This document shows positions 2,002 through 8,077 of a DNA stretch of 27,261 nucleotides, piece by piece (the first letter of the stretch is position 1; the number at the start of each line of letters is the position of its first letter). Position numbers and translations under genes: made by a program. The DNA is from Deltaproteobacteria bacterium (GTDB lineage: Bacteria > Desulfobacterota > Anaeroferrophillalia > Anaeroferrophillales > Tharpellaceae): assembly GCA_013153415.1 (NCBI GenBank), contig JAADEO010000106.1, positions 1-27,261 on the forward strand, given 5' to 3'. The notes beneath the pieces were generated by a model. That model saw only the letters and a program-made list of their open reading frames with translations, had not been told where the DNA came from and ran no database searches.

Positions 2002-4059
2002 TTAATCCTTTGTCTGCCAAGTGATGGATATCGGGGTCCGGGAGAGTTTCAGGTTGCGATTCTGGATCTCAGTCAGCCCCGGGTAGGCGGAGGTCGCGAT
2101 CTCGCTTTTCTTGATCACCAGGCGGCGTTTGAAAACCAGCTCGCGGGGCTTGGTGGAGGTCGCGAAAACCTGGGTGAACTCGGGGGTGTCAATCTTGATA
2201 GTGGCCGGCAGCACGATTTTTCGGGCCGGGTGGGGCAAGGTCAATTTCTCTTCGACGGTGGTGGTGAATGTGTAGCCCAGTTTTATCGGGAAACGTCTTG
2301 CGGTCATATCGGCGCGAGCCAGGATCCAACGGTCCAGCAGGCCGGGGTTTTGCATGCCGGTCACGGGCCGCAGGAGGTTGGTTCCTTGCCCGCTACCGCG
2401 CAGGGCCTTAGGCAGAGAGAATTCTCCACTGAAGCCGAATGGGATCTGCGGGTCGGCCGGATCGGTCCAGTCGATCCGGCTGAGTTCCAGGCCGCAGTAC
2501 TGGTTGAGGAAAAAACCCTTGAGGAAATTCTCGCGTTGCCGGCGGCTCTGGTTCATCATGATCGAGCGCATCATGGTATCGTTGAATCCGGTGCAATGAA
2601 CCTCGATTTTACCCTTCAAAGAGCCTGTTTCGTCAAGCCGGTCACTTATTTTGACCTGAAAGAGATTTCTTTCCGGGGGCAGCGGCGGAGTCAGATCGAG
2701 GTCGTTATGCAACGGGTCGGCGACCAGATAAGAACATTCCCGTTCGTAATCGGGCAGAAACTGGCGGCTGGTTTCCGAGGTCGGATCGAGCAACAGACGG
2801 GTTCGGCCCTGTTTATCGAGAATGGCGACTATGGCGTGATTGAAGTAGGGCAGGGGGATCTCCCGGTCGAGCCGGTCGCCGACCCGGATCAGCACCGGGG
2901 CCGCCCTGAAGCCCGCGCTACGCAGCATGCCGACCAGCAGTGCCGCCTTGTCCCGGCAGACCCCGTGGCGGCGTTGGAAGGTGAGGTTTATATCATGGGG
3001 CTCGAAGCCGGGCCGCCGACTTTCTCCGTTGACTCCCAGATAGCGGATCTTCCGGGCGACAAAGTAGAAAAGGGCGGCGATCTTTTCACGGTCTTCATTT
3101 TTCCCGGAGGTCAGTTTGCTGATTTGCTCTTTCAGTTCGGGGGACGGTTTGAGTTTGTCTTCAACCAGGCTGCTGTACCAGCTGGAAATCGCCTGCCAGT
3201 CGGGCAGGGTCGAATAGAGCAGCCGCATTGCCACCCGGCGGAAGGAGGGCATCTCCGGCTCCGGAACGATCATCGGAACGTTGCGGAAATGCCAGCGCCG
3301 GATTATTTTTTGATCCTTGCCGGGCAGTCGGACTTGCCTGTAAGCAACGCAGCCTTTGACCTCGTTTTTGATCAGCCAGTTGAGCCGGGTGTCGACCGGA
3401 GTGGTGATCGTGAACAGATAGGAGCGGATGGGGATATCGTACTGGCCCAGAATGGAGCCGTAAAACTGGTCCGGAATTACCATTTTGAAGGTGTGGCGGT
3501 TGATCCGGTAGTGAATGGTGTCCCCCACCTCCAGTCCGGGCAGGAAAATCTTGATGGTTTTTTCGAGAGGGTTGTAGATGTTCATGCGGCTGTTGCCGGA
3601 AGAGGTTTCTTCCCGCCGGCAGGCTTTAAGATCAACCGGGCGGGCTCTACCGTCATGGATGATTTCACAGCTGATGATCTCGAGGCGGTCGTAAGCTTTG
3701 TTGAGATAGAAGCTTAAGACCTCATGATTTTGTTTGCCCTCCTCATCGAGAACCGTGATGTAGACATCGTCACTGTTGCTTCGGGAACCGTCGTCCAGTT
3801 GCTCGACATGCTCGATTTCCGAGGCGAGTACGGCGTGGGCATAAGGATAGGTGGTCCGGTTGATCTTTTTCAGCCATTGGAAGGATGCGCCCGTTTCGGT
3901 TGCGAAACTGGTTGCCGGTAGTTGAAAAAGGAGTACCAGCAGGAGGGTCAGAACAACCCGCTTCCCCGATTTCAGGCGACCCGATTCAGGGTAAACGGTG
4001 GAGCTGCGAGAAGCGTTTTCATGCTCTCTGTTCGTGTCGCAATATTTGAATGTTTTCAT
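2002..4059 (-). CDS. Exported DUF3857 + transglutaminase-like (papain-fold) domain protein with intact Cys-His-Asp triad
   Basis: Signal-peptide-like N-terminus (KRVVLTLLLVLLFQLPATSFA) and a DUF3857-like region (IFLPGLEVGDTIHY). The transglutaminase core has GVCRDKA (C368), FNHAIVA (H408) and LLDPT (D425). Confidence 0.88.
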   Translation of the reverse strand: MKTFKYCDTNREHENASRSSTVYPESGRLKSGKRVVLTLLLVLLFQLPATSFATETGASFQWLKKINRTTYPYAHAVLASEIEHVEQLDDGSRSNSDDVYITVLDEEGKQNHEVLSFYLNKAYDRLEIISCEIIHDGRARPVDLKACRREETSSGNSRMNIYNPLEKTIKIFLPGLEVGDTIHYRINRHTFKMVIPDQFYGSILGQYDIPIRSYLFTITTPVDTRLNWLIKNEVKGCVAYRQVRLPGKDQKIIRRWHFRNVPMIVPEPEMPSFRRVAMRLLYSTLPDWQAISSWYSSLVEDKLKPSPELKEQISKLTSGKNEDREKIAALFYFVARKIRYLGVNGESRRPGFEPHDINLTFQRRHGVCRDKAALLVGMLRSAGFRAAPVLIRVGDRLDREIPLPYFNHAIVAILDKQGRTRLLLDPTSETSRQFLPDYERECSYLVADPLHNDLDLTPPLPPERNLFQVKISDRLDETGSLKGKIEVHCTGFNDTMMRSIMMNQSRRQRENFLKGFFLNQYCGLELSRIDWTDPADPQIPFGFSGEFSLPKALRGSGQGTNLLRPVTGMQNPGLLDRWILARADMTARRFPIKLGYTFTTTVEEKLTLPHPARKIVLPATIKIDTPEFTQVFATSTKPRELVFKRRLVIKKSEIATSAYPGLTEIQNRNLKLSRTPISITWQTKD

Positions 4060-4111
4060 GAGGTAATCTCTAGGCGTTCTTTATTATTGCCGTTTTGGAA
4101 TTTTCAAGAGG

Positions 4112-4146
4112 ATTCCCACAAGTTTTTTCACAACCGATGTGGATAA
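4112..4146. promoter_or_regulatory. Cluster of three DnaA boxes
   Basis: ATTCCCACA at 4112-4120 (2 mismatches to TTWTNCACA), TTTTTCACA at 4124-4132 (matches TTWTNCACA) and TGTGGATAA at 4138-4146 (perfect TTATCCACA on the minus strand). Confidence 0.7.
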
Positions 4147-4200
4147 GTCGGCAAAAGGCCGTGATTATTGGAGTATGACGGTTTTTGCGATGTAAGCACT

Positions 4201-4300
4201 TGAAATTATTGGCTATTGTTTTTGGGTTGAAAGTGTATCTCTTTACTTTTCTTTCCGATATCTTTAATGATTACAAGGTATTTATCTCTTTTTTAAAGAG
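4201..4300. other. AT-rich DUE-like segment with three TATCT(C)TTT repeats
   Basis: 27 G/C in 100 nt by hand count. TATCTCTTT at 4236, TATCTTTAA at 4259 and TATCTCTTT at 4283, spaced 23-24 bp apart and lying between two DnaA-box groups. Confidence 0.5.
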
Positions 4301-4320
4301 TTGTTCACAGGTTGTTAACA
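4301..4320 (+). promoter_or_regulatory. Two degenerate tandem DnaA boxes
   Basis: TTGTTCACA at 4301-4309 (1 mismatch) and TTGTTAACA at 4312-4320 (2 mismatches), in the same orientation and 2 bp apart. Confidence 0.5.
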
Positions 4321-4342
4321 GAGGTGATTTCACTGTTTCCGA

Positions 4343-5587
4343 TCAGGCCGTTCTCCGGTTGCGCCGCAAGGCCTGGATACGATTGAGCAGGGGAGGATGG
4401 CTGTAGTGCAGGAAGACGTAAAAAGGGTGAGGTGTCAGGTTGGCAAGATTATCCCGAGCCAACTTTTTCAAAGCCGTGATCAGGGTTTCGGCATCCTTGG
4501 TAGTGGCCGCGGCAAAAGCGTCGGCCTGGAACTCATGACGCCGGGAAAGGGCCTGGAAAAGTGGAGAAATGATCATTTCCACCGGGGTGAAGAGGAGGCT
4601 GAAAAAGACCAGGCCGGCTGCCGGAGAGATGTGCTCCAGGCCAAAAGCCCGGTAGAGATCGGGCTGTTTGATAAACCAGCCCAGCAGGTAGAAGATGATG
4701 CCCTGGTGGATGATGGCGATAGTGGTCATTATCAAGATGTGCTTTTTCTTGTAATGGCCGATCTCGTGGGCGAGGATCGCTTTGAGTTCATTCGGGGTGT
4801 GCTGGCTGACCAGGGTGTCGTAGAGTGCGACTCGCCGATGGCGACCGAAACCGGTGAAAAAAGCATTGCCTTTGCCCGAGCGTTTGGAGCCGTCGATGAT
4901 AAAAACCTGGTCGAGGGGAAAGTCCACTTGGCGGCCGTATCGCTGCAGGGTCTCTTTCAGTTCCCCATCCTCTAACGGGGTGAATTTGTTGAAGAGTGGC
5001 ATGATCCAGGTGGGGGCGATGATCTGGATGGCGAGGGTAAAGATGGCGGTGGTCAGCCAGGCGAAGAGCCACGCCTGTTCGCCGGCGCTCTCGAGAAACC
5101 AGAGAATTGCCGCCAGCAGCGGGGTGCCGAGAAGCAGGGTCAGGATGATTATCTTGGCCCGGTCGAGGAGGAAGGTTTTCCAACTGGTCCGGTTGAAGCC
5201 GAAACGCTCTTCAATCACAAAAGTCCGATAGAGGGAAAAAGGCAGGTTGATTAAAGCCCGGGCCAGGAGAAGGAAGCCGATGAAACAGAGTCCTTGGAGC
5301 AGAGGCGAGTCGCTCAGCTGCCGGCACCAGAGATCGAGTTTACGAAATCCTCCGCCGCCCCAGAAAATCAGGATCGCAGCCAGGTTGAAGAGCTCGGCCA
5401 CTTGGTCAAAAACGGTTGTGACTTTGAGGTATTCGCGGTTTTTATGATAATTCTCAGGATCGATCAAGTCCCTGAACTCCTCCGGCGGGGTTGGGGACTG
5501 GTGGCGGAGATTTAAGATGTCGGCGATCAGGCCGATGGCGTAATCAGCCAGCAGGGCGATGAGAATAAAAGCAGCGTAACCGTTCAC
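4343..5587 (-). CDS. M48 family zinc metallopeptidase, Ste24/CAAX prenyl protease-like membrane protease
   Basis: Several TM segments, plus the motifs ERFGFNRT, DGSKRS..GNAFFTG, HEIGH (HExxH), EFQAD and HPPLLNRI. GTG start. Confidence 0.93.
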   Translation of the reverse strand: MNGYAAFILIALLADYAIGLIADILNLRHQSPTPPEEFRDLIDPENYHKNREYLKVTTVFDQVAELFNLAAILIFWGGGGFRKLDLWCRQLSDSPLLQGLCFIGFLLLARALINLPFSLYRTFVIEERFGFNRTSWKTFLLDRAKIIILTLLLGTPLLAAILWFLESAGEQAWLFAWLTTAIFTLAIQIIAPTWIMPLFNKFTPLEDGELKETLQRYGRQVDFPLDQVFIIDGSKRSGKGNAFFTGFGRHRRVALYDTLVSQHTPNELKAILAHEIGHYKKKHILIMTTIAIIHQGIIFYLLGWFIKQPDLYRAFGLEHISPAAGLVFFSLLFTPVEMIISPLFQALSRRHEFQADAFAAATTKDAETLITALKKLARDNLANLTPHPFYVFLHYSHPPLLNRIQALRRNRRTA

Positions 5588-6458: not shown

Positions 6459-7187
6459 TTATTCTCCCTCTTTGATAATGATGCTTTTGCGGGCCAGCTC
6501 TCGGCCGCTTTCGGTCATGAAATCATTTTGCAAATGCTCTTCCAGTTGCTCCTGGCTTAATGGATTTTCCTGGTTGAGAGTCTGGAGCTCGAAAATCCGC
6601 AAGGCATCGTGGACGCACTGGAAATCGAGATTCTCATCTTTGCCGGGATGGTGAAGGTGGTCGAGGATGGCCAGCACCTGTTCAGTCAGCTCCTCCTTGG
6701 CTTTCAGGCTTTCGAGGATCTCCCGGCCCAGGCGGACGGCCTCTTTCTCCAGCTTTTCGGGACTCGGATTTTCATCGCCCTTGGCCCCGATGTTGTGCAG
6801 GTAGGCGGCGCAGAGCACAATAGCCGGATTGGCGCCCTCTTCAGGGGCCAGTTTGCCGGCGAAACGGGCTACCTTGGTGGCTTGGCCGACATTGCGAAAA
6901 TCCTTGCGGAAATGCATCTTCATTTTGATTGCGACCCTATCTTTCAGGAGGTCATCCCGTCCGGCCAGAAGTTCCGGCGGCAACTCGCCCATGCACTGTT
7001 CGGCATATTGGCAGTACGAGGCGCAGCCGAAATCCATTTTGGGGTTGATGACCTGTTTGCCGCAACCTTGGCATTTGGCCGTGGTCTGATCCTTGAAGAA
7101 CTCAATTTCGGTGCCGCAGTCGGGGCATTTGGCATCGAAGATGGCATCGTGTTTCCAGTAGCGGGAATCCTGTCCGGGACAACGCAT
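6459..7187 (-). CDS. Cys-rich Zn-ribbon + HD-fold protein with degenerate metal ligands
   Basis: N-terminal CPGQD, CPDCG, CQGCG and GCASYCQYAEQC. The HD-like region reads NVGQATKV / AYLHNIG / VHDAL. RBS GGGAG upstream; the stop lies 3 bp before the 4Fe-4S gene start. Confidence 0.8.
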   Translation of the reverse strand: MRCPGQDSRYWKHDAIFDAKCPDCGTEIEFFKDQTTAKCQGCGKQVINPKMDFGCASYCQYAEQCMGELPPELLAGRDDLLKDRVAIKMKMHFRKDFRNVGQATKVARFAGKLAPEEGANPAIVLCAAYLHNIGAKGDENPSPEKLEKEAVRLGREILESLKAKEELTEQVLAILDHLHHPGKDENLDFQCVHDALRIFELQTLNQENPLSQEQLEEHLQNDFMTESGRELARKSIIIKEGE

Positions 7188-7278
7188 GATAATCTCTCCC
7201 TTTCGAGCTCACGGTCGCAATGACCGTGGTTAATGTGAACCAATATTATCTTTTTAATGCTTTTCGCTGCGGTTATCT

Positions 7279-7292
7279 TTGACTTAAGTCAA
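7279..7292. promoter_or_regulatory. FNR/HcpR-type operator TTGAC-N4-GTCAA
   Basis: Perfect 14-bp palindrome TTGACTTAAGTCAA between the divergent Crp/Fnr gene and the HD/4Fe-4S operon. The regulator has an FNR-type ExxSR recognition helix. Confidence 0.8.
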
Positions 7293-7333
7293 CCGGGACT
7301 TTTTTTGAGTTCATCTTGTCGGAAGGTTGTGAT

Positions 7334-8077
7334 ATGGAAGAGACTGAAAAAAAGGAGCAGGGGGGGAGAAAAACCGGAATGAACGGGGAACAGTGCCAAT
7401 CTTTACTGAAGTGGCTGGGGGAGACCTCACTTTTTGCCGGGATGCCCGATGCCCATCTGCAGGAGCTTTGCGGCATCGCCATGGTGGTCAGCTATAAGCG
7501 CCGGGCCCTGATTTTCAGTGCCGGGGATCCGGGTAGCGGTTTCTATCTGGTTATGGAGGGGCGGGTGAAGGTCTACATGATTTCATCCGATGGCAAGGAG
7601 CAGATCCTGCATATCCTGGGGCCCGGGGAGCCATTCGGTGAGGCCCCGGTGTTTGCCGGCCGGAGTTTCCCGGCTCATGCCGTGGCTCTCGATGACTGTC
7701 GTCTGGTCTTTCTTCCCCGCGAAGCCTTTGTCGAACTGGTGACCGCCAATCCTTCACTGGCGCTGAACCTTCTGGCGGTTTTATCGCAGCGTCTGCGGCA
7801 GTTCGCCAAGATGGTCGATTCCCTCTCTTTGAAGGAGGTTCCCGGTCGGCTGGCGGCTCATCTCCTGTATCTGAGCGCCAAACAGGCCGATAAAGACGTA
7901 CTGGAGCTCGATCTTTCGAAAACCCAGCTGGCCAGTCTCCTGGGGACGATTCCGGAAACCCTGTCGCGGATCCTGAGCAAGTTGCAACGGGCCGGCTACA
8001 TCCGGATCGCGGGGGCGAAGGTTACGATTGTCGATCGGGAGAGGCTGGAGGAGTTGGCCGAGGTCGGTCGTTTTTAG
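7334..8077 (+). CDS. Crp/Fnr family transcriptional regulator, HcpR/DNR-like
   Basis: cNMP-binding fold (GRVKVY..S.DGKEQILHILGPGEPFGE) and a C-terminal HTH, LASLLGTIPETLSRIL. ATG at 7334 follows GGAAGG; 7379 is an alternative start. It lacks the FNR N-terminal Cys cluster motif. Confidence 0.93.
   Translation: MEETEKKEQGGRKTGMNGEQCQSLLKWLGETSLFAGMPDAHLQELCGIAMVVSYKRRALIFSAGDPGSGFYLVMEGRVKVYMISSDGKEQILHILGPGEPFGEAPVFAGRSFPAHAVALDDCRLVFLPREAFVELVTANPSLALNLLAVLSQRLRQFAKMVDSLSLKEVPGRLAAHLLYLSAKQADKDVLELDLSKTQLASLLGTIPETLSRILSKLQRAGYIRIAGAKVTIVDRERLEELAEVGRF

Follow-up and report, generated by a model that had tools for sequence, protein, structure and literature searches.

Introduction

The control of DnaA by non-coding sites (the DnaA-reactivating sequences DARS1 and DARS2, and the datA locus) has been worked out almost solely in Escherichia coli, and the timing of initiation in most bacteria is still open. 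DARS1 occupies the bioD-uvrB spacer and DARS2 the rppH/ygdT-mutH spacer, and where these sites and datA lie on the E. coli chromosome is of consequence. In both, the DnaA boxes named I and II face in opposite directions across 5 bp of DNA; a degenerate box III' has been described at the flank of the array; DnaA molecules bound to this pair are proposed to contact each other head to head, releasing ADP, while box III extends the complex head to tail (PMC6868365). For DARS2, conservation has so far been reported among beta- and gamma-proteobacteria in the vicinity of E. coli (PMC5742627), and a literature search, which was not exhaustive, returned no paper joining DARS-like sites with Deltaproteobacteria, Desulfobacterota or Myxococcus. 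In Bacillus subtilis, six clusters of DnaA boxes lie outside oriC; some of them reportedly act as regulators of neighbouring genes, and all of them jointly as a restraint on initiation (PMC3245932, PMC2533591). Here we examine a cluster of DnaA boxes in a 283-bp spacer between two minus-strand genes (positions 4060-4342) of a 27.3-kb contig from an uncultured deltaproteobacterium. This contig, analyzed at its full length, is referred to as the window. The original prediction had read the cluster as a relocated origin, as a non-origin DnaA site of the DARS or datA kind, or as a promoter under DnaA control.

Our comparisons indicate that the spacer is one of two conserved non-coding and putatively DnaA-binding modules with a DARS-type core found per genome, and that it is not an origin. 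We interpret the module as a cis-acting DNA element that would bind several DnaA molecules and whose conserved role would be exerted on DnaA and not on the neighbouring genes, an interpretation to which we assign a probability of about 0.55. The module very probably binds DnaA in vivo, and its conserved role is probably the control of DnaA activity or availability. Nucleotide exchange on DnaA in particular is a tentative proposal by analogy with E. coli, preferred to a datA-like or titrating function and then to promoter control.

The box array reproduces the layout of a DARS core

The anatomy of the module was derived from 29 aligned elements belonging to two paralogous sets, copies 1 and 2, the spacer in the window being a copy 1. 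Read on the plus strand of the window, the module is about 250 bp long and has first a 20-bp block that is restricted to copy 1. Boxes a, b and c come next, with gaps of 3 bp (a-b) and 2 bp (b-c), and the inverted box d stands 5 bp beyond box c. Some 47 bp further on there is a motif resembling the IHF consensus (YAANNNNTTGATW), followed by an AT-rich stretch, a block of the form TTAATAATTAC...ATTA, and the distal box e (coordinates in Table 1). Read on the other strand, the succession of d, 5 bp, c, 2-3 bp, b, 3 bp, and a is the layout of a DARS core. The E. coli cores, as read from NC_000913, run TTATCCACT, 5 bp, TGTGGATAA, 3 bp, TGTGTATTA in DARS1, and TTATTCACC, 5 bp, TGTGGATAG, 3 bp, TGTGAAGAA in DARS2.

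The likeness to DARS extends to several features. Both are non-coding, lie outside the origin, and occur in more than one copy per chromosome. The three-box core I-III is represented by boxes d, c and b, with the degenerate fourth box a in the place of III', boxes b and a being weak in the window. The counterparts of boxes I and II are inverted and 5 bp apart in all 29 elements, and the counterpart of box III stands in tandem with that of box II in every copy, with a gap of 3 bp both in E. coli and in this genus. As in DARS2, which has IHF and Fis sites at fixed distances from its core, a candidate IHF site is found nearby, 46-47 bp from box d, the site being weak in copy 2. Unlike DARS, most copies of the module have a II-III gap of 2 bp, copy 2 carries additional tandem boxes, and a conserved distal box lies about 155 bp away; moreover, no sequence similarity between the module and DARS was seen beyond the boxes themselves.

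Spacings within the array are nearly invariant. The gap between boxes c and d is 5 bp in 29/29 elements, that between a and b is 3 bp in 25/25, and that between b and c is 2 bp in 26/27; the last measures 3 bp in the window and in a relative of the same genus and 2 bp elsewhere. The gaps of 3 and 5 bp originally described for the trio formed by boxes b, c and d were reproduced. The sequences of these spacers drift, with 0.37-0.49 bit per column and 0.37 bit in the c-d spacer, so that spacer lengths are constrained and spacer sequence is free. The distance from box d to box e is about 155 bp in most elements. A frequency matrix built from 112 aligned boxes reads TTWTYMACA, with variation mainly at box positions 3, 5 and 6, and in box c marked variation among the 29 elements is limited to positions 3 and 5; box a is degenerate in copy 1 and a good box in copy 2. 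We read these sites as DnaA boxes because their variable positions are those tolerated in DnaA boxes, for which the consensus is TTWTNCACA (PMC4585315).

The boxes in the window, taken alone, are not above chance, and it is conservation that gives the cluster its meaning. Scored against the consensus TTATCCACA, 3 boxes with at most one mismatch were observed in the window against 3.26 expected, and the assembly holds 7 perfect boxes, with about 8 estimated from base composition. By simple box density the spacer ties for about fourth to fifth place among the 300-bp segments of the assembly, the first place going to C224:7301. The five box matches of the original prediction stand at the positions given, one of them perfect and two with 2 mismatches, but the count was overstated, two of them being wrong at 3 of 9 positions. 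The cluster nevertheless rises above chance because relatives carry the same boxes with identical spacing, and some of these boxes are perfect matches. Furthermore, an inverted pair with a 5-bp gap and at most 3 mismatches in total occurs just twice in 1.87 Mb, at C41:4124 (the window) and at C224:7526 (copy 2).

These data also bear on the possibility that the array does not serve DnaA. Together, boxes c and d make a 9+5+9 palindrome, and this, with the chance-level box count in the window, could point to the operator of another dimeric regulator, to an RNA hairpin, or to a fortuitous cluster. Each half-site of the palindrome, however, drifts independently toward the DnaA consensus with no compensatory change, tandem copies of the same 9-mer flank it, and a fifth copy lies 155 bp away, while order-wide conservation and the spread of the core across the phylum exclude chance. 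A search of Rfam at a permissive threshold gave no match beyond a meaningless snoRNA fragment. The consensus fold computed with RNAalifold contained the box c/d palindrome only, with no covariation, and the module was rejected as an RNA on these grounds. Altogether, we consider it very unlikely that the array is something other than a DnaA site.

The original prediction had found no IHF consensus, whereas the window holds an IHF-like site with a single mismatch (Table 1), and this site is a perfect match in 9/16 copy-1 elements, while copy 2 departs from the consensus at 1-3 positions. Among the proteins encoded in this genome are an IHF alpha subunit that scores above its family cut-off, a beta-like subunit just under the cut-off, and an HU-like protein. 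An IHF site at a fixed offset from the core was not seen in other families of the phylum, and the site was discarded as a phylum-wide feature.

As a separate observation, the E. coli chromosome (NC_000913, locus L144:942-985) carries a further box arrangement some 300 bp away from the DARS2 core, close to ygdT in the rppH-mutH region. A perfect inverted box stands in the middle of it, with a box-like 9-mer 5 bp before and a weak 9-mer 3 bp after.

Conservation of two paralogous copies

An alignment of 12 elements had a mean column identity of 74% over about 256 bp, and the sequence-only covariance model built from it matched positions 4080-4325 of the window at 128 bits. Searches with this model recovered copy 1 in 18 genomes of the family, this genome included, which answers positively the question of conservation in relatives raised with the original prediction. 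The same boxes are found in relatives at the same distance from the stop codon of the flanking M48 peptidase gene. The placement of copy 1 between peptidase and transglutaminase genes was seen in this family only; one genome has lost copy 1 and keeps copy 2. Among 80 M48 peptidase loci from many phyla, the box pair was present downstream of the gene in the two closest relatives only, which indicates that copy 1 is family-specific.

A weaker match over the same model positions defines copy 2, which is present in 14 genomes of the family, including this one (C224:7336-7569), and a single match of copy-2 type was obtained in 6/7 genomes of the sister family. In all 13 copy-2 loci fetched, the module adjoins mazG on its downstream side, beside hflX. 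Copy 2 has extra upstream tandem boxes, 5-6 in a row with periods of 11-12 bp, and a second box beside box e; in this genome, its region holds the 300-bp segment of highest DnaA-box density in the whole assembly.

The orientation of the two copies with respect to replication is fixed and opposite, copy 1 being on the G-rich strand in 16/16 cases and copy 2 on the C-rich strand in 13/13. This mostly reflects synteny, because related genomes are not independent.

In one relative (genome G013; L013:186-836, minus strand as extracted), an open reading frame (ORF) of 216 aa stands between the module and the M48 gene. Although some 1.1 kb separates the module of this genome from the peptidase gene, no part of the module has been lost.

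Distribution of the core across the phylum

We searched 401 sampled Thermodesulfobacteriota genomes for the pattern of a box, 5 bp, an inverted box, 2 bp, and a box, allowing at most 3 mismatches. The three-box core was present in 116/401 genomes (about 29%), with some 190 matches that often fell at two loci per genome, against 7 matches of a reversed-pattern control. When the first gap was set to 6 bp, matches were found in 32/401 genomes, many of them being 5-bp sites refound with a slip of one base; when it was set to 4 bp, they were found in 6 of 101 genomes, compared with 31 of the same 101 at 5 bp. The copy-2 model also gave weak matches in other families, which have the same core. The core adjoins mazG in two of these genomes (G090 and G157). 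Another match beside mazG is without the strict core, and one additional locus beside mazG was also found. The original suggestion of a non-origin site of the DARS or datA kind is supported by the layout of the core, by the two conserved paralogous copies, and by this spread across the phylum.

True 6-bp variants of the first gap are concentrated in one family (f38), where they occur beside 5-bp cores (e.g., G223:C40:88882 and G307:C5:99637). They represent a natural spacing variant that is possibly informative for the head-to-head model.

The replication origin lies at another locus

The presence of DnaA boxes, an AT-rich stretch with repeats resembling the E. coli 13-mers, and an IHF-like site could be taken to mean that the spacer is the chromosome origin, or a second or cryptic one, and a relocated oriC had been among the original suggestions. 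GC skew argues strongly against it. The skews of contigs in this genome are bimodal, with modes at about -0.09 and +0.07 that denote a strong replication skew, and in the window the skew stays positive from end to end, also over the 4 kb left of the spacer. In six relatives with contigs of 15-47 kb, the sign of the skew does not change across the homologous locus, and in a relative that has the locus at 11 kb of a 104-kb contig, the first 98 kb (the part fetched) is almost uniformly positive. Three relatives show an abrupt inversion of skew, negative before and positive after, at the dnaA-dnaN spacer, and on the contig of this genome that carries dnaA the skew changes at the same place. The test by GC skew proposed with the original prediction therefore places the inversion elsewhere, a result that refutes only the oriC version of that prediction. 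Moreover, the cores of five closed genomes lie 0.55-1.6 Mb from dnaA.

The dnaA-dnaN spacer is likely the oriC of the family, which would place the real origin of these uncultured organisms. In this genome it has 34% GC and comprises CTATCCACA, TTAACAG, a TAT/TAC run, and an AT-rich tract. The spacer has 25-34% GC across the family, and the same order of elements, with a conserved DnaA box first, was found in three relatives. The TAT/TAC run reads TAG/TAA on the other strand and resembles the DnaA-trio of origins of the B. subtilis type. Comparison with the dnaA intergenic region, which had also been proposed, thus recovered there the box, the trio-like run and the AT-rich tract. The original prediction had noted that dnaA was not nearby and that the locus had no DnaA-trio run, and both statements hold: dnaA is on a different contig of the assembly and the trio-like run was found at dnaA-dnaN only.

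The 27%-GC stretch with three TATCT(C)TTT-like repeats is present in the window as described, with a GC content of 0.267 over positions 4200-4300 and TATCT(C)TT repeats starting at 4236, 4259 and 4283. These repeats, which had been likened to the 13-mers of the E. coli unwinding element, are not conserved even within the genus. Bacterial origins with a box and DnaA-trio unwinding module resemble the present module in having DnaA boxes and AT-rich DNA. It differs from them in lacking a switch of skew, a trio run and a conserved unwinding element, three features that the dnaA-dnaN spacer of the family possesses. Origin function is consequently the remotest of the possibilities that we considered, and the spacer was rejected as a relocated oriC because of the unswitched skew, the non-conserved TATCT repeats, and the skew switch at dnaA-dnaN. 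An 11-mer is common to box e and the dnaA-dnaN spacer of this genome and is not conserved in relatives.

Possible promoter control of the flanking genes

The array could instead be a promoter region regulated by DnaA, which would switch the PLD-like gene next to copy 2 and, in the window, the DUF3857/transglutaminase operon. The start codon of the transglutaminase gene is 20 bp from the module, and a transglutaminase gene start is found within 21-61 bp in 9/16 copy-1 loci; copy 2 lies 140 bp upstream of the PLD-like gene in this genome. In relatives, a weak leftward promoter can be read over box a and the 20-bp block (TTGATA, 18 bp, TAAAAA, with an upstream TG; our own reading), and the 20-bp block may be the -10 element and spacer of such a promoter. 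No sigma-70-like promoter or terminator was found in the window, however, and in three other copies none recurred at a consistent position.

On the array side, the adjoining gene differs from locus to locus and between families; it may be the 5' end of a transglutaminase or PLD/Usp gene, or the 3' end of a DsrE-like or DUF1318 gene, while the module remains anchored to the 3' end of the gene on the other side. The gene whose 3' end faces the array is DsrE-like in at least 5 copy-1 loci and is a co-directional ORF in 6 copy-2 loci (DUF1318 in two checked by Pfam), with the module kept in all these settings. That the module is kept between two 3' ends in several relatives makes gene-specific promoter control unlikely as the conserved function. 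Of the promoter option in the original prediction, what stands is that such control is possible in this genome, in which a gene starts 20 bp away; as a conserved function shared by both copies, each of which lies between 3' ends in some relatives, it is improbable.

The DsrE-like ORF, present in several genomes of the sister genus, has 114-118 aa and a weak similarity to DsrE/DsrF that is below the Pfam cut-off, and it lies between the transglutaminase gene and the module (L117:1126-1470, L113:1125-1469, L118:1030-1386, L120:1050-1406, L121:1053-1397). It is absent from the window, and one genome (L007) seems to keep a mere remnant of it.

Possible reactivation or inactivation of DnaA

By analogy with DARS1 and DARS2, two DnaA molecules bound to the inverted boxes d and c, 5 bp apart, would meet head to head as they are proposed to do on boxes I and II, and DnaA on boxes b and a would extend the complex head to tail in the manner of boxes III and III'. 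Such a complex would loosen bound ADP, allowing DnaA to reload ATP and to initiate again. Bending of the DNA and modulation of the process may come from the distal box e and from the candidate IHF site, which is 46-47 bp away, as with IHF at DARS2. The DnaA protein of this genome is 42% identical to that of E. coli and, of the residues named for the head-to-head interface, keeps Val211, Leu214, Phe239 and Lys243, and also Leu290 (PMC6868365).

The strongest competitor is a datA-like or titrating function, in which the array and an IHF-type bend would assemble ATP-DnaA oligomers that either hydrolyze ATP, the reaction that takes place at E. coli datA, or hold DnaA away from the origin in the manner of the B. 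subtilis clusters. E. coli datA, next to glyVXY, is made of the same parts, with an inverted pair of boxes, an IHF-consensus site, and a single box, 56-84 bp to either side; in the module a single box likewise lies tens of bp to the other side of the IHF-like site, and the candidate IHF site of one relative is the identical 13-mer. The row of 5-6 head-to-tail boxes in copy 2, with its periods of 11-12 bp, would suit such an oligomer. Inactivation of DnaA at a locus would also be useful to cells in which no Hda was found. Titration has a precedent in B. subtilis, whose clusters are also intergenic and away from the origin and whose deletion is reported to result in early initiation (PMC3245932).

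The module differs from datA in its spacing. The inverted pair has the DARS gap of 5 bp in every copy whereas that of datA has 3 bp, and the third box in tandem beside the pair is a feature of DARS that datA lacks. The perfect IHF consensus, in turn, is confined to one genus. To our knowledge, the B. subtilis clusters are looser and have no fixed geometry of the DARS type. We thus regard a datA-like or titrating role as unlikely, though as more plausible than promoter control.

Several observations weigh against the role on DnaA that we favour, or against nucleotide exchange as its form. Each copy in this genome lies close upstream of a gene whose transcription leads away from it, which makes a promoter role possible. 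The parts list shared with datA does not by itself separate a DARS from a datA, and the 5-6 tandem boxes of copy 2 look more like a scaffold for an ATP-DnaA oligomer, as in oriC or datA, than like a minimal DARS. The IHF-like site is good just in copy 1 of one genus. No homologue of Hda was found in three relatives that are 96-100% complete, so that the main E. coli route to ADP-DnaA may be missing, which weakens the need for a reactivation site and sets these organisms apart from E. coli. Residue Gln208 of E. coli DnaA, needed for DARS activity, corresponds to Asn210 in this genome, and Gln215 to Met. The asparagine does, however, retain an amide side chain. Finally, the mechanism is proposed here from the sequence of a metagenome-assembled genome (MAG) of an uncultured organism.

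That the modules are true DnaA-reactivating sites, usually at two loci per chromosome and in a phylum far from E. coli, is accordingly put forward as a tentative extension of the E. coli model. If this proposal is true, DARS-type control is no speciality of enterobacteria and their relatives. The module offers a sharply defined candidate for the control of initiation timing, with exact boxes, exact spacings and two syntenic copies, and the question can be tested directly in any cultured member of the phylum.

Genomic setting and coordinates of features

The window is the whole of contig C41 of the MAG, an assembly of 1.87 Mb in 246 contigs with a completeness of 78% and a GC content of 57.7%. 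The M48 peptidase has its closest named relatives in MAGs labelled Thermodesulfobacteriota. The DNA runs that contain the region carry the labels of hydrothermal-vent or epibiont metagenomes, and no RNA run was listed for it. The flanking genes had been called a protease and a transglutaminase, and Pfam agrees, identifying an M48 peptidase, the 3' end of which abuts the module on the box-e side, and a DUF3857/transglutaminase-core protein (Table 1).

Table 1. Coordinates of the module, its elements, and related loci. Positions are those of the window unless a contig is named.
Feature	Position	Strand	Remarks
Entire non-coding module as conserved (copy 1), read from box a towards box e	4079-4325	+	Covariance model and 12-sequence alignment
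Conserved 20-bp block beside the box array, consensus TTTTATCATTGCCTTTTTGG	4079-4098	+	Near-invariant in the alignments; copy 1 only
Box a, counterpart of DARS1 box III', TTTTCAAGA	4101-4109	+	3 mismatches
Box b, counterpart of DARS box III, ATTCCCACA	4112-4120	+	3 mismatches
Box c, counterpart of DARS box II, TTTTTCACA	4124-4132	+	2 mismatches
Box d, counterpart of DARS box I, TTATCCACA	4138-4146	-	Perfect; inverted with respect to box c, 5-bp spacer
Candidate IHF site, TAAGCACTTGAAA	4193-4205	+	Differs from YAANNNNTTGATW at 1 position; lies 46 bp beyond box d
AT-rich stretch with three TATCT(C)TT repeats	4236-4292	+	Repeats genome-specific
Conserved block, consensus TTAATAATTAC, few bases, ATTA	4264-4285	+	Common to both copies and both families
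Box e (distal), TTGTTCACA	4301-4309	+	2 mismatches; 0-2 mismatches in 29/29 elements
Second distal box-like 9-mer, TTGTTAACA	4312-4320	+	3 mismatches; confined to this genus
M48 (Ste24/HtpX-type) peptidase gene	4343-5587	-	Pfam PF16491 and PF01435; syntenic in family
DUF3857/transglutaminase-core gene	2002-4059	-	Pfam PF12969 and PF01841
Copy 2 of the module in this genome	C224:7336-7590	-	Between mazG 3' end and PLD-like gene
dnaA-dnaN spacer	G000 contig C112, ~7108-7397 (locus L001:668-957)	-	Likely oriC of family

Two further observations concern genes of the window. Positions 80-2020 and 2002-4059 (minus strand) encode tandem DUF3857 paralogues that overlap by 19 bp, and the transglutaminase core domain is present in the upstream one only. 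A gene for a Crp/Fnr-type regulator lies at 7316-8077 (plus strand), 3 kb from the module; nothing ties this regulator to the box palindrome.

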